DNA from: Candidatus Fraserbacteria bacterium
GTDB lineage: Bacteria > Bipolaricaulota > Bipolaricaulia > RBG-16-55-9
DNA length: 31,380 nucleotides
Direction: 5' to 3'
NCBI GenBank assembly: GCA_037442925.1
Contig: JBBIPG010000022.1
Span: 1 to 31,380, forward strand
Shown: piece after piece, positions 1-30,717 of the stretch
Layout of the letters: the number at the start of each line of letters is the position of its first letter
Position numbering within the stretch: the first letter of the stretch is position 1
Notes under the pieces: model-generated
The model's database searches: none
What the model saw: only the letters and a program-made list of their open reading frames with translations
Told to the model about the DNA's origin: nothing
Position numbers and translations under genes: made by a program

Positions 1-59
1 TTTTTACATGAGGCAACGATCCCGTTTGGAGTACTTTTTTGATGAGGCAATTCGTAGTA

Positions 60-88
60 TTGATATTATGGCATGGAAGTGGTATAAT
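60..88 (+). promoter_or_regulatory. sigma70-type promoter of RHH gene
   Basis: TTGATA (60-65), 17 bp spacer, TGnTATAAT (80-88); GAGGAG SD near 98-103. Confidence 0.75.
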
Positions 89-114
89 ACCGTCCGAGAG
101 GAGAATCAGCCTGA

Positions 115-405
115 ATGACGCGGCATACAGCAAGCACTGAAAAAGTCACGCTTTCCTTCCCCAGCGATCTGGTAAGGAAAGTCAAGGAGAGGGCTCCGAA
201 AGGAGAGGTAAGCCGCTTTGTGGCGGAGGCAGTACGCGAAAAACTAGAGGCGGAAGAGCGAGCCAGACTGAGAGAAGAGCTGAAAGAGGGCTATCTGGCT
301 CGGGCTGCTGCACACAAAGAGTTGGCGCAAGAGTTCTACGAAGCAGAAGAGGAAGCGTACTCCAATTCCCTGCCATCCGCTAATCCGTTCTCTTTATCGC
401 GTTGA
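115..405 (+). CDS. ribbon-helix-helix (CopG-like) putative antitoxin, no adjacent cognate toxin
   Basis: N-terminal KVTLSFPSDL..VSRFVAEAVREKL RHH pattern; acidic helical C-terminus; last ~11 codons and stop lie inside the repeat at 370-410. Confidence 0.7.
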   Translation: MTRHTASTEKVTLSFPSDLVRKVKERAPKGEVSRFVAEAVREKLEAEERARLREELKEGYLARAAAHKELAQEFYEAEEEAYSNSLPSANPFSLSR

Positions 406-410
406 CAGAT
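370..410 (+). repeat. palindromic repeat family, single arm
   Basis: CTGCCATCCGCTAATCCGTTC-N9-CGTTGACAGAT; the 21-nt and 11-nt blocks are identical to the reverse complement of 1119-1158. Confidence 0.9.
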
Positions 411-448
411 CACTTGCTCCAACAGCTGCTTTCAATCCAAGAGAAAAG

Positions 449-718
449 TTAACGGTACGTCTTCTCCTTCCTCAAGCGGATCGAAACGATATACACGACC
501 TTCGCTTCATGGAGAAGAACAAGAAAGATGCGGTAACGTCCTACCGCTTTGCGATACACCCCTTTCCATTGCTTGCCTTTGAGGGGCTTCACGTTGCCGA
601 GGAGGGGATTCTCCTTCATCCGTTCTAGGGCACGCTTGATCATCGCTTGTTGATCGCGGGGGAGCCCTGCCAGTTGCTCCTCAGCCTCGGGGGAGAGGCG
701 AACGGTCCAGGACAGCAT
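449..718 (-). CDS. RelE/ParE-family toxin
   Basis: 89 aa basic protein, VRLSPEAEEQL..VKPLKG..YRKAVGRYRI motifs; ATG at 718, 8 nt after the antitoxin stop. Confidence 0.85.
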   Translation of the reverse strand: MLSWTVRLSPEAEEQLAGLPRDQQAMIKRALERMKENPLLGNVKPLKGKQWKGVYRKAVGRYRIFLVLLHEAKVVYIVSIRLRKEKTYR

Positions 719-726
719 GAAAGTGG

Positions 727-990
727 CTACAGTTTGAGTCTCTTCTTGAGTTCGTCCCAATCCACGTACTCGCCACGCTTGAGTTGTTCGAGCCCTCGCT
801 TGATGCTAGCCTCATCCTCAGGGGTGAGCACATCCTCGGAATCCACGACCTTCTTTGGCTTGATGAGCACGGCTCCTTTAGCTCGTTTCACTTCGACAAA
901 GTCTCCTTCGTGTAGATCCAACTCGTCGCAGATCTCTTTGGGGATCACGACTTGGCGGCGCTTGCCGAGCTTACCGATAGGCATTGCCAT
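727..990 (-). CDS. AbrB/MazE/SpoVT-family antitoxin
   Basis: RRQVVIPKEICDELDLHEGDFVEV swapped-hairpin motif; GAGGAGG SD directly upstream; upstream of RelE-like gene. Confidence 0.85.
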   Translation of the reverse strand: MAMPIGKLGKRRQVVIPKEICDELDLHEGDFVEVKRAKGAVLIKPKKVVDSEDVLTPEDEASIKRGLEQLKRGEYVDWDELKKRLKL

Positions 991-1026
991 CCTCCTCGAT
1001 TGTATGAGGTCTCATTCAGCATACAT

Positions 1027-1070
1027 TCTGACTATCAGATTTAGATTAGCAGGTTCACGCCGTATGTCAA
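1027..1070 (-). promoter_or_regulatory. promoter and putative operator of AbrB-RelE operon
   Basis: minus strand TTGACA-16 bp-TAATCT with extended TG; palindrome TCTGA-N3-TCAGA at 1027-1039. Confidence 0.6.
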
Positions 1071-1118
1071 GGGCGATGGGACCTGGTACCTCTCTAGTTT
1101 GGATGCTTCTTGGCGGGA

Positions 1119-1201
1119 ATCTGTCAACGGATGAGAGGAACGGATTAGCGGATGGCAGTGAGCTGCACGATCCGTTAATCCGCTTGCTATCCGTTGACAG
1201 A
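1119..1201. repeat. ~83-bp imperfect palindrome (complete hairpin copy of the repeat family)
   Basis: TCTGTCAACGGAT (1120-1132) pairs perfectly with ATCCGTTGACAGA (1189-1201); inner AACGGATTAGCGGAT pairs with ATCCGTTAATCCGCT; GCAG/CTGC at the loop. Confidence 0.9.
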
Positions 1202-1206
1202 CCCCC

Positions 1207-1235
1207 TTGACAAGTATACTTTTGTATGCTATACT
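1207..1235 (+). promoter_or_regulatory. lexA-recA promoter with palindromic putative SOS box in the spacer
   Basis: TTGACA (1207-1212), 17 bp, TGnTATACT; AGTATAC-N4-GTATGCT at 1213-1230. Confidence 0.75.
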
Positions 1236-1245
1236 TATGTTCGCA

Positions 1246-1881
1246 ATGAACAGAGAGCTGACGGAGAAACAGCGTGAGATTTTGAAATTCATCGTCGATC
1301 GCATCGAGGAGCGGGGAGCCCCGCCGACGATGAGGGAGATCGCAGGGCGATTTGGGTTTGCCTCGCCCGCCAGCGTCAAGGGCCATCTGGAAGCTTTGGA
1401 GAAGAAGGGCTTCATCCAGAGGCGTGAGTGGACGGCCCGCGGGATCGAGCTGGTCAAGGAGCGCATTGGAAGACTCTTCTGGGAGCGCGAGGGGATTCCG
1501 CTGGTGGGGCGGGTCGCCGCCGGACAGCCCATCTTGGCCGAGGAGAACATCGAAGAGGTGCTCAAGCTCGAAGGTCTCTTCCCTGTGGATCAGGGGTTAT
1601 TCGCGTTGCGCGTTAAGGGCGATAGCATGTTGGAAGCGGGCATCTTGGAGGGAGACATCTTGATTGTGCGCCCGCAGCCCACAGCGGAGATCGGCGATAT
1701 CGTCGTGGCCATTTTGGGAGAGGAAGGGACGGTGAAGCGCTTCGGCCGAGCCGGAGATCATATTCGCCTGGAGCCGGCCAATAGAAACTACTTGCCGATC
1801 GTCACGCGCGAGGCCCGCATTGTGGGCGTCGTCGTGGGGGTTATCCGTCGCCTACGTTCCAAGCTCAGCACTCATCATTAA
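1246..1881 (+). CDS. lexA: SOS repressor LexA
   Basis: [16 protein letters not shown] w[15 protein letters not shown]la-Gly cleavage site, GDSM Ser nucleophile, TVKR Lys; start moved to ATG 1246 because the promoter overlaps the longer ORF. Confidence 0.97.
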
Positions 1882-1897
1882 AGGAGGAATTCATTGT

Positions 1898-2989
1898 ATG
1901 GGCAAAGCAGAAGTGTTGCAGGGCGTACTCGATCAGATTCGCAAGCGCTATGGGGAAGGTTCCATCATGTGGCTGGGGGAGTCCGGTCGTCTCGACGTGG
2001 AGACGATGCCCACCGGTTCCTTGGGGTTGGACATCGCTCTAGGGATCGGAGGTGTGCCCCGAGGGCGCATGGTGGAGATCTTCGGCCCGGAGTCTTCCGG
2101 CAAGACCACCTTGGCGCTGCATCTCATTGCCGAAGCCCAGAAACGGGGAGGGACGGCAGCCTTCGTGGACGCCGAGCACGCGCTCGATCCCAATTATGCG
2201 CGGGCGATTGGCATCGATCTCGATCAACTCTTGCTCAGCCAGCCCAACTCCGGCGAGCAGGCTCTAGAGATCACGGAACAGCTCGTCCGCAGCGGGGCTG
2301 TCGATATGGTCGTCATCGACTCGGTGGCTGCTCTGGTTCCGGAGGCCGAGATCGCCGGGGCCATGGGAGATGCGCAAGTGGGTCTGCAAGCGCGTCTCAT
2401 GAGCCAGGCGATGCGCAAGCTCACAAGTGCCGTCGGGACTTCCAAGACCACGGTCGTCTTCATCAATCAGATCCGTTCCATGATCAGTTCTGGGCCTTGG
2501 GGTCCCTCGACGACCACGACCGGGGGGCTGGCTCTCAAGTTCTATGCCTCGCTGCGCTTGGAGATCCGTCGGATCGGGAGCGTCGAAGACGGAGCTGGCA
2601 ACGACAAGCTCAAAATCGGCAACGAGACGATCATCAAGGTCGTCAAGAACAAGCTGGCTCCTCCGTTCCGTGAGGCCAAGGTGGACATCATCTATGGCAA
2701 GGGGATCGTCCGCTCGCGGGAGCTGGTCCACTTGGGTGAAGAGCTAGGCATCATCAAGAAGAGCGGGGCGTGGTATTCATTTGATGGCACTCAGCTCGGG
2801 CAGGGACTCGCGAACACCGCGGCATTTCTCGAGGAGAAGCCCGACATTGCTGCTCAAATCGAGCGAGCCATCCGAGAGAAGACCGGATTGACCCGCTCAG
2901 AGCCCAGCTCTAACGGCAAGGAAGCAAAACCCGAAATGAAAGCGGAGGCCCAGCCCAAGCGCGGCAAGGCCGCTGCTACCGTGGCATGA
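1898..2989 (+). CDS. recA: recombinase RecA
   Basis: GPESSGKTT Walker [44 protein letters not shown] before ATG 1898. Confidence 0.99.
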
Positions 2990-3013
2990 GCAATAATATA
3001 AGAGAGGGCTAGG

Positions 3014-3087
3014 AGGCAGGAGTGGGGAGCAATTCAGCGCGGAAGGAGGTTCATCCCCCACAAAGATAGAGCTTCCTACTCCTGCCT
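3014..3087. repeat. 17-bp inverted repeat with 40-nt loop downstream of recA
   Basis: AGGCAGGAGTGGGGAGC (3014-3030) / GCTTCCTACTCCTGCCT (3071-3087); 15 Watson-Crick and 2 G-U pairs on the + strand RNA. Confidence 0.7.
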
Positions 3088-3099
3088 TGGACCATCTGT

Positions 3100-3132
3100 C
3101 TGCCAACGGATGGTTTCATCTGCTAATCCGCT
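3100..3132. repeat. degenerate, internally deleted copy of the palindromic repeat family
   Basis: CTGCCAACGGATGG resembles CTGTCAACGGATGA; CATCTGCTAATCCGCT resembles CATCCGCTAATCCGTT. Confidence 0.55.
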
Positions 3133-3195
3133 CATGCAGGCCATGCCCGCCTGGGCAGGGAAGTAATCCAATGATCGCGCAAGGAGGTAGCTGAC

Positions 3196-3728: not shown

Positions 3729-3802
3729 CCTTCCAGCGAAGAGCCCATCAAAGTTGTATGATAATGACCGCCAATGAGCAAATCCCTTCACTATCCATCA
3801 GG

Positions 3803-5638
3803 TCAGCTCTTGAGAGCCTTCAAGATTCGCTGGGCCAAAGGGCGAGGTAGACCGGGAACCTCCAGCAACTCCTCTAGGCACGCCTCTTGAATCTTCTTCA
3901 CCGAGCCAAAGCGCTGGATTAAGAGCTTCTTGCGTGTAGGGCCAAGACCGGGGATGTCATCTAAGAGGGATTTCACAGTGCGCTTCTGGCGCAATGTGCG
4001 ATGATATGCCAAGGCAAAGCGATGGGCCTCATCGCGCACGCGCTGGAGGAGCTGCAAGGCGGGCGAGCTGCGGGGCAAGACGATGGGCTCATCTCTGCCT
4101 TCTGTAAAGATGTGCTCGAACTCCTTGGCCAGCGCCAGTGTGGGAATCTTCTCCAGCCTCAACTCTCTCATCACCTGACAGGCAGCAGCCAGCTGACCCT
4201 TCCCGCCGTCGATGAGGATGAGATCGGGGAAGGGCAGAAACCGCTTGTCGCCTGCCAGCGCACGCTCCAGCCGTCGACGTATGATCTCGGCCATCATGGC
4301 GAAATCATCCGGGCCTTGCACGCTCGTAATTCCAAAGCGGCGATACTCTGACTTCTTGGGTTGGCCATCCTCGAAGACAACCATAGATCCAACAGGATCG
4401 GCGCCCTGAATGTTCGAGATATCAAAGCCCTCAATCCTTCGGGGGCAAGAAGCCCACGGCAAGATCTTCTGGAGTTCTTGTAGCACCTCTTCGCCCTCTG
4501 CCGGCTGCTGTCTTTGACATGACTCTTCTTCTTTGAGTGCCAGCTCTGCATTTCGTAGAACCATCTTGACGAGATGGCTCTTGGACCCGCGCTGGGGGAC
4601 GATCAACCGCACGCGGCTTCCGCGGCGTTCGCTGAGCCAGCCCTCGATCATAGAACTCTCTTCGATCTCTCGCTGTAGCAGGATCTCTTTGGGAATGAAC
4701 GCAGCGCTTGCGTAGTATTGCTTGACGAACGCTGTGAGAATCTCTTTCAGGTCAGCGGAACCCGCTGTCTCTACCCAGAACTGCTCACGTCCTACCAACT
4801 TCCCACCTCGGATGAAGAAGACCTGAACCGAACAGAGATCATTTTCTTGATAGACCCCGATGGCATCACGATCCATCCCCTTGGGATCGACGGCCTTTCG
4901 CGCACTCAGCAGGCGTTCGAGCCTGTGGATGCGATCGCGGAGCCGAGCAGCCCTCTCGAACTCGAGTCTTTGAGATGCCTCTTCCATCTCTTGTTGCAGC
5001 TGGGGCAAGAGCTGTTCATGCTGGCCGCCTAAGAAGAGGGCGGCCTGCTCAACGAGAGACCTGTAGGAACCCGGATCAATCCATCCTACGCAGGGGGCAT
5101 CGCAAAGCCCAATATAGTGATCGAGGCAGGGACGCTGACGTAGAGGCTTATCGCGAATGTCGAGGGTGCAGGTCCTGATGCGGAAGATCTGCTGAATCAC
5201 ACGGCTCGCTTCGCGCATGGCAAATGTGTTCGTATAGGGCCCAAAGTATCGTGCGCCGCGTTGCACGTCCTTCTCGATGCGGCGCTCGATCACAAGACGC
5301 GGGAATTTCTCTGCCGTCAGCTTCAGATACGGATAGCGTTTGTCGTCGCGGAGTCTCACATTGAAGCGCGGCTGATGTTTCTTGATCAATGTGTCTTCGA
5401 GGATCAGCGCTTCGCGCTCGGAAGGGGTTGCGATGAACTCGAAATCCGCGATCTCATTCACCAGGCTGCGCCTCTTATGATCGAGATGGCGTGAGGCGTG
5501 AAAATACGAGCGGACCCTATTGCGCAGCGAAGAAGCCTTGCCTACGTAGAGGATGTCTCCGTGGGCGTCCTTCATGAGATAGACGCCCGGCTCGGCAGGC
5601 AGGAGCTTCAGTCTTTGACGGAGGTTGGGCATGTCCAC
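3803..5638 (-). CDS. uvrC: excinuclease ABC subunit C
   Basis: GVYLM..LYVGKA GIY-YIG, Cys-rich region, UVR domain, EGFDISN and DGGKGQ RNaseH-like domain, C-terminal HhH. Confidence 0.98.
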   Translation of the reverse strand: MDMPNLRQRLKLLPAEPGVYLMKDAHGDILYVGKASSLRNRVRSYFHASRHLDHKRRSLVNEIADFEFIATPSEREALILEDTLIKKHQPRFNVRLRDDKRYPYLKLTAEKFPRLVIERRIEKDVQRGARYFGPYTNTFAMREASRVIQQIFRIRTCTLDIRDKPLRQRPCLDHYIGLCDAPCVGWIDPGSYRSLVEQAALFLGGQHEQLLPQLQQEMEEASQRLEFERAARLRDRIHRLERLLSARKAVDPKGMDRDAIGVYQENDLCSVQVFFIRGGKLVGREQFWVETAGSADLKEILTAFVKQYYASAAFIPKEILLQREIEESSMIEGWLSERRGSRVRLIVPQRGSKSHLVKMVLRNAELALKEEESCQRQQPAEGEEVLQELQKILPWASCPRRIEGFDISNIQGADPVGSMVVFEDGQPKKSEYRRFGITSVQGPDDFAMMAEIIRRRLERALAGDKRFLPFPDLILIDGGKGQLAAACQVMRELRLEKIPTLALAKEFEHIFTEGRDEPIVLPRSSPALQLLQRVRDEAHRFALAYHRTLRQKRTVKSLLDDIPGLGPTRKKLLIQRFGSVKKIQEACLEELLEVPGLPRPLAQRILKALKS

Positions 5639-13436: not shown

Positions 13437-13479
13437 GCACCCATTCTAATCTCCGCTTTTGCCGGGTACAAGAATCGGC

Positions 13480-13546
13480 CAACGGATAGTCAGCGGGCAA
13501 TTCGGCCATTGACAGAGAGCTGCAACCTGATAAACTGATGATCAGT
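13480..13546 (+). promoter_or_regulatory. degenerate repeat remnant, promoter and operator upstream of second AbrB gene
   Basis: CAACGGATAGTCAGCGG matches the reverse complement of the 1170-1201 arm at 15/17; TTGACA (13509)-16 bp-TAAACT with extended TG; palindrome ACTGA-N3-TCAGT at 13534-13546. Confidence 0.6.
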
Positions 13547-13583: not shown

Positions 13584-13877
13584 ATGCCTATAGTCAAGGT
13601 GATGAAGCACCGGCAGGTCGCTATCCCGAAAGAGCTCTTTGAGAAACTCAAACTCGAAGTGGGCGACTACCTCGAGGTGAAGATTGAGAAGGGCAAGCTC
13701 GTGTATGTGCCTAAAGAGTTGGTTGACCGTCAGGCAGCACAGGCGATTGAGGAGGCGTTCGAGGACATCAAGGCGGGGAGAGTAGCGGGACCTTTCAAGT
13801 CGGCAGAAGAACTGATTGAATCTCTAAGAAAACCAAGGGGTGGGCGAGTACCTGTCGCGGCTGCACCGCTATTTTAA
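13584..13877 (+). CDS. AbrB/MazE/SpoVT-family protein, orphan antitoxin-like
   Basis: HRQVAIPKELFEKLKLEVGDYLEV; C-terminal EDIKAGRVAGPFKSAEELI antitoxin-like tail; GGAGG SD. Confidence 0.85.
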   Translation: MPIVKVMKHRQVAIPKELFEKLKLEVGDYLEVKIEKGKLVYVPKELVDRQAAQAIEEAFEDIKAGRVAGPFKSAEELIESLRKPRGGRVPVAAAPLF

Positions 13878-14306
13878 CACGCGCAAACTCAAACGGTAGT
13901 CCTCACGTCGTATTGGTTGAGTGGATCTGGGTTGTGGCATCAGGCCCTCAAAGCGAATCTGATAACCTTCGTAGGTGACCTCCCGAGGCTCTACATTGGA
14001 GTTGAGAGTCAAGATTTGCGCGGCTCTATTCTCTTGCTTGACTTCGAGGGAGACTTTCGCGTTGCCTGCCCAAACGCAGACCACATCAACGGGGCAACGT
14101 GAGTCCTCTAAGACCTCTTTGGACGTGATGAAAAGACCGACACTAGATAATCGCCCTGTTTGCCCAATGGAAATCTGAAAGACTTGGCCTAGCTGAACAT
14201 CCACAGTAGGCAACGGAAACAATCCCAAGAGGTCGCAACTCCCTGAGGGTAAGAGCGCCAACATAAACAGACCGAGCGCAACGAAGCGGTGATTCGAGTT
14301 CAGCAC
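13869..14306 (-). CDS. exported or lipoprotein-like hypothetical protein
   Basis: hydrophobic leader ending in SGSC; EDSRCP..VCVWAG motif; GAGGAGG SD. Confidence 0.75.
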   Translation of the reverse strand: MLNSNHRFVALGLFMLALLPSGSCDLLGLFPLPTVDVQLGQVFQISIGQTGRLSSVGLFITSKEVLEDSRCPVDVVCVWAGNAKVSLEVKQENRAAQILTLNSNVEPREVTYEGYQIRFEGLMPQPRSTQPIRREDYRLSLRVLK

Positions 14307-22891: not shown

Positions 22892-23190
22892 GTTAAAATT
22901 GAAAATATCTTTTATCTTTCCCCTGTGGAAAAACCTGTGGATAACCCTGGGGAAATCCTGTGGAAAACTGACCCCAAGCTGTGGAAAACTCCTGTGGAAA
23001 ACTCCCCAGCCGAGTTATCCACAGAAGTTATCCACAAGGGCAAGGCACTTTTCCACAGTTTTTCCACAGATCTATCCACAGGCAATTTTGAATTCTCATC
23101 TAAACAAAAGCCACTTTTCCACAGGTTGGAAGGCCCCCTACAACTACTACTAGATAATAAATAATAAGCCTGTAGTTGTTGTTGTAAGGC
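22892..23190. other. probable chromosomal replication origin oriC
   Basis: 11 DnaA boxes (3 perfect TTATCCACA, 7 TTTTCCACA, 1 CTATCCACA) plus one degenerate; GGCCCCC followed by TAC-AAC-TAC-TAC-TAG trios and an AT-rich tract. Confidence 0.9.
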
Positions 23191-27957: not shown

Positions 27958-28671
27958 TCAGCGATCCCATCTTAGGGCATGGGCCACGCGGTCTTGAAAG
28001 GGGAGATACCCCCAATACCAAGCGCGCCAGGCCGTAAATAGTAGACCTGCTACGAAGATTAGCGTTTGGAAGGTTCCTATGCCCACCAATTCCAAGACCG
28101 GCTGAGTCATCCAAGCCAGCAGGAATGATACAGAAGTTCCCACCGTCAGTGCGATTCCCGTGCATAACCAGCAACGGTTCTCTCTGACTCGACGCTCCAC
28201 TTTCAGTGAGTGAGGGTCAACTCGCTCAGAACAACCACTGCAACCGGATTTTGATTTTCGATCACCATCTACATCTGCGAAGAATGTTTCGTTACGATCG
28301 TGGAACTCCAGCCTTTCGCCTTGAGGTGTTACGACCACACCACGCGTCTCAATGAGCGCATCTTCCGTAATTCCGATTTGCTCCAAGGATACGTCCTTGG
28401 GTACAGCCAGAAGGTTGCGAAATTGGATGAATTCCCCATCGGGTTTGACTAAATGACCTTTTGCCAAAGTCAACGTACGGTTCTTGCGCACTCCGATTTT
28501 GCTTGTGACCAGAAAAAGCTGCGCAAGGCCTTGGTCTACGTGGATGCGCAACAGCACTCCCTCATCTAAAGGTATAGACTTGAAGGGGACTTGATCGTTG
28601 AATTGCTGTTGGTAAAGCTGGGTCAGGATCGCCCCCATATTCGTTCTTGACTTACTATTCATTTCTCTCAT
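27958..28671 (-). CDS. hypothetical membrane protein with two CxxC motifs and two C-terminal TM helices
   Basis: 237-aa ORF, ATGA overlap with the upstream gene, CSGC and CWLC before hydrophobic segments. Confidence 0.7.
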   Translation of the reverse strand: MREMNSKSRTNMGAILTQLYQQQFNDQVPFKSIPLDEGVLLRIHVDQGLAQLFLVTSKIGVRKNRTLTLAKGHLVKPDGEFIQFRNLLAVPKDVSLEQIGITEDALIETRGVVVTPQGERLEFHDRNETFFADVDGDRKSKSGCSGCSERVDPHSLKVERRVRENRCWLCTGIALTVGTSVSFLLAWMTQPVLELVGIGTFQTLIFVAGLLFTAWRAWYWGYLPFQDRVAHALRWDR

Positions 28672-30176: not shown

Positions 30177-30437
30177 CTAGGTGAGGGGAGAGATCTTGCC
30201 CGGTGGCTCCAAGTTCTTCGCCTTGCTCCAAGCCGCCTTCAGCTCTTCCTGATGCTGCGCGGCCCACTCGGCCACTAAGCCCATGGCCCGCGGAGGCAAC
30301 CTGCCTCCAATGAGGGCAAGAGTCTCGATGCTCACTAGCGCTTCGTGTTCACCGTATAGGGCGTGAAAATGGGGCGGCAGGTGATCGTCGAAGTACATCC
30401 GAATCACGATGCCGTAGAAGCGGCACAGTTCAGGCAT
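30177..30437 (-). CDS. DUF4160-family protein
   Basis: MPELCRFYGIVIRMYFDDHLPPHFHA..EWAAQH signature. Confidence 0.9.
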   Translation of the reverse strand: MPELCRFYGIVIRMYFDDHLPPHFHALYGEHEALVSIETLALIGGRLPPRAMGLVAEWAAQHQEELKAAWSKAKNLEPPGKISPLT

Positions 30438-30717
30438 CGGCTCTGACCGGCTTCAGAGCCGGGAATATATCCTCAGGCGGCTGGCCCGTCAGTCGGAGAT
30501 AGAGCGCATCCGGGCAGAGGTCGATCTCCTCTCCCCAACAGATCGCTCCGGCATCATCGATCCGGACGGCCTCGAAGAAGGCCTTCTCCTCCCAAGCTTT
30601 GAAGACCCCACGCCCCACAAGGTGCGACAGGTCGACTTCCCCCTCGACACCGTTTGAGTACCGCAACCACAGTCGGTAGCCCTCCAACGCCTTCACTGCT
30701 GTTGGTCTTACCATCAC
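30430..30717 (-). CDS. DUF2442-family protein
   Basis: YRLWLRYSNG..VDL..ICWGEEIDLCPDALY signature; overlaps the DUF4160 start. Confidence 0.9.
   Translation of the reverse strand: MMVRPTAVKALEGYRLWLRYSNGVEGEVDLSHLVGRGVFKAWEEKAFFEAVRIDDAGAICWGEEIDLCPDALYLRLTGQPPEDIFPALKPVRADA

Follow-up and report, generated by a model that had tools for sequence, protein, structure and literature searches.

Arms of a short repeat family at the lexA locus of this Candidatus Fraserbacteria genome match the inverted ends that flank GxxExxY (TIGR04256/PF13366) nuclease genes, and differences in gene content between the genome and its relatives end at arm boundaries. On balance, we favour the view that the arms are gene-less ends of GxxExxY cassettes, which have likely spread in trans and likely act as break or recombination points at a minority of sites. 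New here are the subfamily built of ACGGAT words and the allele evidence that toxin-antitoxin content changes at arms. A literature search, with most subscription papers and supplements outside its reach, yielded no description of repeats linked to GxxExxY, and none are described in the accessible portion of 10.1101/2021.01.26.428298. In the accessible portion of PMC3424549, the function of GxxExxY (PF13366) is listed as 'Unknown'.

Arms at the lexA locus and across the genome

The window, that is, the whole stretch of 31,380 nucleotides that was analysed, comprises all of contig C22 from an assembly of 2.07 Mb in 86 contigs (94% complete). Its features are the following.

4..54, no strand assigned: end of a multi-copy insertion sequence, a separate element, at which the contig breaks off, directly ahead of the RHH promoter
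115..405, plus strand: truncated RHH-type antitoxin gene, with the last ~10 codons read from the arm and the mazF-type partner missing
370..411, plus strand: solo right arm, with the inner box at 375-389 and an outer box that ends TTGACAGA at 409
449..718, minus strand: RelE/ParE-family toxin gene (PF05016, E 7e-08)
727..990, minus strand: AbrB/MazE-type antitoxin gene (PF04014, TIGR01439)
1119..1201, no strand assigned: gene-less cassette (hairpin) of two arms and a 16-base loop
1207..1236, plus strand: lexA promoter, with -35 box TTGACA and -10 region
3099..3133, no strand assigned: collapsed copy in the interval from recA to the DinB gene, with the left outer box joined to the right inner box
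13475..13516, no strand assigned: probable decayed collapsed copy, weak, by pattern match only
13584..13877, plus strand: second AbrB-type gene (TIGR01439)

Contigs C32, C34, C35 and C37 end in sequence that matches bases 4-54 at 98%. The first-pass annotation had reported no transposase or integrase in the window; a Pfam scan of the 35 ORFs agrees, but the insertion-sequence end had been missed. The RHH label is that annotation's reading of the sequence, and Pfam and NCBIfam scans gave no match for this gene. The abrB gene appears to have its own sigma-70-like promoter at ~1043-1070. In the cassette, the left arm carries its outer box at 1120-1132 and its inner box at 1139-1153, and the right arm its inner box at 1170-1184 and its outer box at 1189-1201. 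The cassette stops 5 bases short of the -35 box of lexA, whose promoter is host sequence conserved in hairpin-free relatives. Downstream of lexA, the Pfam scan of the window identified recA, the DinB gene and uvrC.

An arm reads TCTGTCAACGGAT, 3-10 variable bases and ARCGGATKARCGGAT, that is, three ACGGAT-type words in 33-38 bp, and paired arms produce hairpins of 70-100 bp. The exact outer box occurs 26 times and the exact inner box 21 times in the genome, compared with 0 and 0 in three shuffles. An arm profile had 39 matches at E<0.01, the best match on reversed contigs having an E of 3.1. With the limit set at E 0.011, 40 arms were counted at 27 sites, of which 12 hold an inverted pair, 14 a solo arm and 1 a tandem; this bears out the earlier idea of a dispersed, non-autonomous REP/MITE-like family. 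Equally sound was the description of the arm at 370-410 as a near-exact inverse of 1119-1158: aligned as 370-411, which holds one inserted base, against the inverse of 1118-1158, the two share 38 identities, with 2 mismatches and 3 gap columns. Among 37 other arms, 1118-1158 is the best match of 370-411, and the pair ranks 5 of 703.

The segment 1119-1201 is indeed a complete hairpin, folding as DNA at -31.6 kcal/mol (z -9.97; 0 of 200 shuffles equally good); the solo arm, taken as 360-420, did not fold (z 0.28). Across the family, the boxes are conserved, and almost every copy has spacers and loops of its own. Furthermore, arms within the 12 hairpins showed no excess complementarity over shuffled pairs (box identity 23.9 versus 24.4 of 28, p 0.96). 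Thus, the words, not the fold, appear to be conserved, and selection for the hairpin structure was rejected because there is no compensatory change between paired arms. No target-site duplication of fixed length was evident at the 12 hairpins of this genome. In an Rfam scan of 7 loci, only a tRNA reached the gathering threshold, and the arms matched no known structured RNA.

Two decayed copies had been proposed downstream. The one at 3099-3133 yields only weak profile matches (E 7.6 and 0.16) and is supported by a relative that has a full left arm at this position (see below), whereas the one at 13475-13516, the weakest copy, had no profile match at E<10. The latter is the sole match in the genome to a collapsed-copy pattern that was written post hoc (0 matches in three shuffles). 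Upstream of the second AbrB gene, its TTGACA and then a TAAACT follow each other at a distance of 16 bases. No toxin gene was recognised behind that gene, the neighbour at 13869-14306 being on the opposite strand and without a Pfam match.

Of 184 genomes from the phylum, 4 contain the strict arm pattern, and these 4 belong to the family of this genome. With one mismatch allowed, the 12-base box was more frequent than a control in G004 (31 versus 1), G007 (18 versus 0), G003 (15 versus 1) and G006 (12 versus 3), and scarce in G001, G002, G005, G008, G009 and G011; the strict pattern is nearly absent from G001, which is of the same genus. A scan of all species genomes returned 108 stretches, and among the 80 listed, 72 were from Chloroflexota and 4 from Bipolaricaulota-type lineages.

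The GxxExxY nuclease gene and its flanking arms

To avoid circularity, 80 metagenome loci were selected by GxxExxY protein similarity alone. An arm-profile match lay within 250 bp of the GxxExxY gene in 50 of the 80 loci, compared with 12 of 80 for matches elsewhere in the locus, and at least 3 words of the CGGAT or CGAAT type were present in the 200 bp flanks of the gene in 70 of 80. Arms flank the gene in L173, L184, L192, L206 and L236. The commonest layout among loci with matches was left arm - gene - right arm, spanning about 495-560 bp; hairpin-gene-hairpin and hairpin-gene-arm layouts were also found. In G004, a genome of the same family as ours, the GxxExxY gene (TIGR04256; L263, 1386-1835) has two hairpins upstream and further arms downstream, all belonging to the ACGGAT-arm family. 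The clade's 78 loci compared here form 37 neighbourhood groups. Words of other types accompany four distant GxxExxY genes, and in a quick tree of GxxExxY the word types cluster. Exact duplications of 2-9 bases bounded 0-2 of 51 gene-bearing cassettes, so that no fixed target duplication was apparent. In loci selected by the motif, clustering of ORFs beside arms revealed no dominant enzyme family, and the nuclease gene was present in only 5 distinct loci; thus, the link between arm and gene rests on the protein-selected test.

GxxExxY is a large, widely transferred nuclease family. In the clade, G29, E32, Y35 and D71 are invariant, and E81 and K83 are present in at least 90% of 69 aligned rows; D71, E81 and K83 are predicted to be catalytic-type residues. 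A structure model (pLDDT 89) had its best Foldseek match at E 2.9e-4, with a TM score of about 0.5, and resembles, at the fold level only, SSO0001 (a Cas4 protein), AdnA, MGME1 and lambda-type exonucleases. The clade protein is accordingly modelled as a PD-(D/E)XK nuclease with a Cas4/lambda-exonuclease-type fold.

The GxxExxY gene was absent from our 94% complete assembly in searches with PF13366, tblastn and a clade profile, and it is also missing from the arm-bearing G003, G006 and G007. The first-pass annotation had expected a RAYT/TnpA(Y1) or tyrosine recombinase gene as the partner; the partner found was the GxxExxY nuclease. It is barely credible, and largely refuted, that the arms belong to a RAYT (Y1) transposase as REPs or REPINs or serve a tyrosine recombinase as attC-like sites. 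The extragenic inverted doublets and five tyrosine-recombinase matches in the genome would suit such a reading, but PF01797 has no match here or in the arm-bearing G003, G004, G006 and G007, and the 3 of 9 family genomes that do have PF01797 are all arm-poor. As for attC, the integron-integrase scan covered 3 of the 5 recombinase matches, two partial ones being left out; these three full-length proteins scored 110, 97 and 59 bits against the TIGR02249 cut-off of 265, none lies beside an arm, and paired arms, as noted, are no more complementary than shuffled ones. Since the assembly contains no GxxExxY gene, no Y1/RAYT gene and, among the three recombinases tested, no integron integrase, the copies are taken to be gene-less cassette ends.

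Under the favoured view, the GxxExxY nuclease would bind the three ACGGAT words, cut at or between arms, and spread full and gene-less cassettes in trans. Repair of the cuts by short homology would leave collapsed copies and solo arms, and would cause genes to be gained or lost within arm boundaries; alternatively to cutting, the same outcome could result if arms, at 35-40 bp, and duplicated gene ends recombined in the ordinary way. In either case, toxin-antitoxin operons would be gained, lost or truncated at arms, at a minority of sites that includes this locus. Because the gene is missing here and from three other arm-bearing genomes, the driver of the arms may be lost, unassembled or not needed.

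Alleles of the locus in relatives

In G001, contig C64 matches window positions 54-372 (81% at the DNA level) and the match ends at 372, past which the RHH gene of G001 continues into a PemK/MazF match. Since its G001 counterpart extends into a mazF-type gene, the RHH gene of the window is truncated precisely where the arm has its inner end. At the junction, 370-372, three bases are common to the RHH gene and the inner extension of the arm, as short-homology repair would leave. Thus, the earlier suggestion that 1119-1201 is simply an empty site and the RHH gene an intact cargo does not hold. No lexA gene was found in G001 (80% complete).

Run X4 represents a relative that is ~90-95% alike, the evidence consisting of single contigs, of 2402 and 10576 bases, and the 30-letter ends of unmatched segments. 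One X4 contig matches the window at 57-372, continues with 453 other letters and matches again from 1202, the 30 letters before 1202 being a right arm. X4 is therefore without the block 373-1201, the breaks fall at arm ends, and a single arm is retained. The 453 letters probably contain mazF, judging from G001, and 387 of them would fit. In X4, the outer end of another right arm lies ~20 bases before base 57, where the window has the insertion sequence. In the X4 contig, 587 letters precede base 57; the last 30 of them start with an 11-base string whose single occurrence in this genome is in the C40 arm, and no placement for this flank was found in our assembly. Thus, the order in X4 is probably arm - RHH - (probably mazF) - arm - lexA, compared with insertion sequence - truncated RHH - arm - relE - abrB - hairpin - lexA in the window. 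X4 also differs at 3111: it has a complete left arm, the inner part of which is the inverse of window positions 3112-3133, followed by about 700 extra bases before the match resumes. On this alignment, 3099-3133 is read as the collapsed form of the larger X4 allele.

Presence and absence ending at arms, as had been anticipated, were thus observed in X4 at 372/1202 and at 3111. The comparisons with G001 and with X4 share a single break point, the base at which the 370-411 arm has its inner end. Since X4 differs from the window exactly at repeats, the arms are likely break points for the gain or loss of gene pairs. Before lexA, G005 and G006 have neither arm nor toxin-antitoxin genes, but they also differ in the upstream gene. 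Short pieces from X2 and X3, which look like one data set, match the allele of the window across 368-532 and 700-1243; X1 may be the source data; X5 and X6 were compared on 1190-3125 only. A left arm upstream of base 1, another expectation of the first-pass annotation, was not recovered: the insertion sequence breaks the contig there, and the five contig ends that carry its other end show no clear arm close to it.

In the simplest history, the locus would have started as arm - RHH - mazF - arm - lexA promoter, as in X4. Next, abrB-relE would have been gained with a second arm pair (the abrB-relE step may also have run in the reverse order), a deletion with one end at the inner boundary of arm 370-411 would have removed mazF, and the insertion sequence would have landed before the RHH promoter. 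This proposed history needs no dedicated integrase. The locus gives one GxxExxY clade a defined candidate DNA target of 33-38 bp, and it offers natural alleles for a binding or cleavage test, namely a full arm, a collapsed copy, a single arm and an arm-bounded module.

Accessory genes, promoter gaps and known repeat systems

The predicted enrichment of arms beside toxin-antitoxin genes was confirmed in a census of six families, covering 50 genes at 42 loci of this genome. Nine of the 27 arm sites lay within 600 bp of a census gene, with 1.4 expected. At the level of loci, with two in-gene arms left out, a toxin-antitoxin-type gene lay within 600 bp of 6 of 19 arm loci, compared with 7.6% of 605 intergenic gaps (p 0.002), which is an about four-fold enrichment; without the locus of the window, the count was 5 of 18 (p 0.009). 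In other genomes, toxin-antitoxin-type Pfam matches lay within 700 bp of 5 of 74 arm loci versus 0 at 1500-2200 bp, a comparison of 116 kb with 79 kb, six duplicate loci left out, that is not significant alone (binomial about 0.08).

The first-pass annotation had further proposed that arms are used in trans to insert cassettes. This was not substantiated: 36 of the 42 toxin-antitoxin loci have no arm, and similar insertions with duplicated flanks also occur without arms. An arm is near 7 of the 50 census genes (6 of 42 loci); C9, the closest paralogue of the abrB-relE operon, has none, and neither do four abrB-relE-homologous loci in G001 and G002. The genome contains 71 local direct repeats, and three of those around toxin-antitoxin genes (C6, C10 and C17) are without an arm of this or of a second repeat family, which indicates that insertions accompanied by duplication of a gene end are general in this genome.

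Several arm sites do bracket accessory genes. On C69, a terminator-plus-arm unit is repeated three times around BrnT-CopG and RHH-PIN operons, and the orthologous G006:C2 has three such units with different genes between them. On C42, HicBA lies before rplI between repeats of a unit that consists of an 89 bp gene end and an arm. Arm-bounded accessory genes are found in other phyla, in L148 (DUF433 between two hairpins), L169 (BrnT between arms), L193/L194 (left arms enclosing tandem modules of TumE and of MvaI methylase, and a repeat of the end of the upstream gene), L292 and L315.

Such arrays could be the work of a dedicated integron-like system, in which the GxxExxY protein, with or without a host factor, would excise and insert circles of an arm or hairpin plus cargo, a reading that we consider rather unlikely. 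It would account for the hairpin-gene-hairpin, hairpin-gene-arm and arm-gene-arm layouts that enclose the nuclease gene at some loci and other cargo elsewhere, for RHH(-mazF) between two right arms in X4 and abrB-relE between arms at the same locus of the window, for the different cargo of the arrays on C69 and G006:C2, for the tandem, arm-delimited restriction-modification and TumE modules, and for the extra arm-delimited segments beside the nuclease gene in L292, L294, L300, L315, L327 and L332. However, the junctions are uneven, some lying at inner ends, some with a duplicated flank of 50-180 bp and some without; the cargo has its own promoters and mixed orientation; and most arms are without cargo and most cargo without an arm. 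Moreover, we know of no covalent-intermediate chemistry for rejoining in the PD-(D/E)XK fold. Just as doubtful, taken as a whole, is the proposal of an integrase-free cassette system in which a 145-residue Cas4-like nuclease would recognise the arms and capture, stack and lose toxin-antitoxin and defence genes, forming integron-like arrays across Chloroflexota and this lineage, with the gene supplied in trans acting on gene-less genomes. If it is true that arms direct gene gain and loss, accessory-gene arrays can arise without an integron integrase or transposase; if not, a genome-wide repeat family is still explained, and such repeats supply -35 boxes and truncate genes.

In the way it works, the arm system resembles REPIN-RAYT and SsnA-NTS without belonging to either; it is not an integron system and does not appear to be a DDE MITE. 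REP/REPIN-RAYT systems share with it the extragenic inverted doublets, solo arms, higher-order arrays and an enzyme gene between repeats, whereas the arm-rich genomes tested have no Y1 gene, single arms remain unfolded and the enzyme fold is different. REP elements have a GTAG-type foot, which is absent from the arms. Integron attC sites and integrase-less clusters are similar in placing hairpin-capable sites between small accessory and toxin-antitoxin genes, and attC sites also in the differing cargo at an orthologous locus (here C69 versus G006:C2 and the window versus X4). The core sites of attC are RYYYAAC/GTTRRRY; the arm ends, in contrast, read TGTCAAC and GTTGACA, there is no compensatory change, the cargo has its own promoters, and half of the sites are solo arms. 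DDE MITEs and in-frame palindromic elements are alike in being short and gene-less, with inverted ends near TGT and an outward -35 box, and the latter occasionally reside in frame in a protein gene; unlike in DDE MITEs, there is no fixed target duplication, interiors vary from copy to copy, and the cognate gene does not encode a DDE transposase. The insertion-sequence ends seen at contig breaks differ from the arm.

According to the accessible portion of PMC11893778, which also discusses REP/REPIN elements, SsnA is a GIY-YIG nuclease with demonstrated activity and its NTS a directional hairpin of 20-50 nt. As far as described there, the SsnA-NTS/SRM system resembles ours in a small nuclease gene, of a single domain, between copies of its own repeat, in many gene-less intergenic copies and in a proposed link to gene exchange. 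It differs in that the partner here is of the PD-(D/E)XK type (TIGR04256), not GIY-YIG, the activity of GxxExxY being predicted, and in that the arm consists of three short words, only paired arms forming a hairpin.

Arms favour promoter-proximal gaps. A TTG-type -35 start lies within 20 bases of 14 of 39 arm ends (background 16%), and a -10-like hexamer 16-18 bases from 5 of 39 (background 3%). The unrelated multi-copy insertion sequence also sits just before -35 boxes, so that part of the toxin-antitoxin enrichment reflects shared target space. At the tRNA-mutase promoter gap, our genome has a hairpin, and G004 and G008 have an insert that reads as toxin-antitoxin-like, with no arm. These observations and the arm-free gene-end duplications favour the arms being inert relics at a shared hot spot, where hairpins, toxin-antitoxin modules and insertion sequences would land independently and arms be copied as passengers. 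We hold this to be unlikely, since the independent breaks in G001 and in X4 coincide where the 370-411 arm has its inner end, and X4 also departs from the window on arms at 1202 and 3111.

It is quite improbable that the arms are domesticated host sites, with the words kept for protein binding (for example, for cutting incoming ssDNA, as by SsnA at NTS repeats) or the outward TTGACA kept as a -35 box. In line with this, the boxes are conserved while spacers and loops vary, some arms are retained at orthologous sites in G006, the GTCAA of the arm replaces, in register, the host -35 of relatives at two promoters (lgt and tRNA), and five arm ends have the -10-like hexamer. However, the narrow distribution of the strict pattern and its near absence from G001, the lack of a cognate gene in the assembly and the 34 of 39 ends that give no promoter argue against it. 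A LexA operator was rejected on two grounds: arms accompany genes that do not belong to the SOS response, lgt, tRNA and rplI among them, and the conserved lexA promoter motif lies outside the arm. Two arms sit in frame within ATPase genes.

Arms within genes, at promoters and in arrays

The left arm of the ACGGAT family was found in frame within heavy-metal P-type ATPase genes, two in the genome that contains the window and one orthologue in a same-genus relative (G001), directly after the DKTGT motif. These in-frame arms, which may be relics of an in-frame cassette, are located as follows:

L005:3028-3064, in-frame left arm
L006:7739-7775, in-frame left arm
L102:1479-1516, in-frame left arm

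Furthermore, comparison of L013:3060 and L016:3061 with the relatives L399 and L412-L423 showed that, at lgt and tRNA promoters, the outward TTGACA of the arm occupies the exact position of the -35 box in the relatives. Head-to-tail arrays of arms, spaced by 66-111 bp, were identified in one Anaerolineales record set (L152, L177, L200, L201 and L228) and could be mistaken for CRISPR arrays.

Among the cassettes carrying a GxxExxY (TIGR04256) nuclease gene between arms, the largest neighbourhood group comprised 19 loci, including L292, L297, L298 and L302. The members of this group inspected by eye were located between the two genes that probably encode the glycine-cleavage P-protein; this shared position suggests that the cassette has been retained vertically for a long time at one site. 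The gene-bearing cassettes L291, L319 and L275 occupy one site, where ~50-60 bp of the end of the upstream gene are repeated downstream of the right arm.

Duplications around toxin-antitoxin genes

A second repeat family, consisting of TCAGC/GCTGA triple words, yielded 16 matches in the same genome, on the following contigs:

C1:48600 and 49390, TCAGC/GCTGA repeat
C26:27470-27530 and 28310-28370, TCAGC/GCTGA repeat
C29, C30, C52, C60 and C81, TCAGC/GCTGA repeat

On C1 and C26, toxin-antitoxin genes are bracketed by a duplication that comprises the repeat and 110-176 bp of flanking sequence. This design is that of the ACGGAT arms, built with a different word. In three toxin-antitoxin operon inserts of this genome, 62-73 bp of the neighbouring gene's end were duplicated, and neither a repeat nor an integrase was recognised:

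C6:7415-9421, insert with duplicated gene end
C10:653-1580, insert with duplicated gene end
C17:914-1988, insert with duplicated gene end

A further toxin-antitoxin-like module, the DUF2442-DUF4160 pair, is present at 30177-30717 of the window, with no arm of the ACGGAT family nearby.

Other features of the window

Positions 4-54 of the window correspond to the end of a multi-copy insertion sequence, and the same end was found at the ends of contigs C32, C34, C35, C37 and C43. In every case, the insertion-sequence end lies ~4 bases ahead of a TTGAC/TTGAT-type -35 box. A similar end (C71:7420-7455) follows a transposase-like ORF, presumably IS1182-like.

Ahead of the DciA gene, TGTGGA(T/A)AA-type boxes are clustered in direct and inverted order (22925-23082); by their motif, they resemble the DnaA boxes of a replication origin. 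Compared with the window, the relative in sequencing run X4 carries 711 extra letters separating the DinB gene from uvrC (3742-3852) and 106 at the lexA end (1832-1897), and the relative in run X5 carries 524 extra letters separating lexA from recA (1832-1897).
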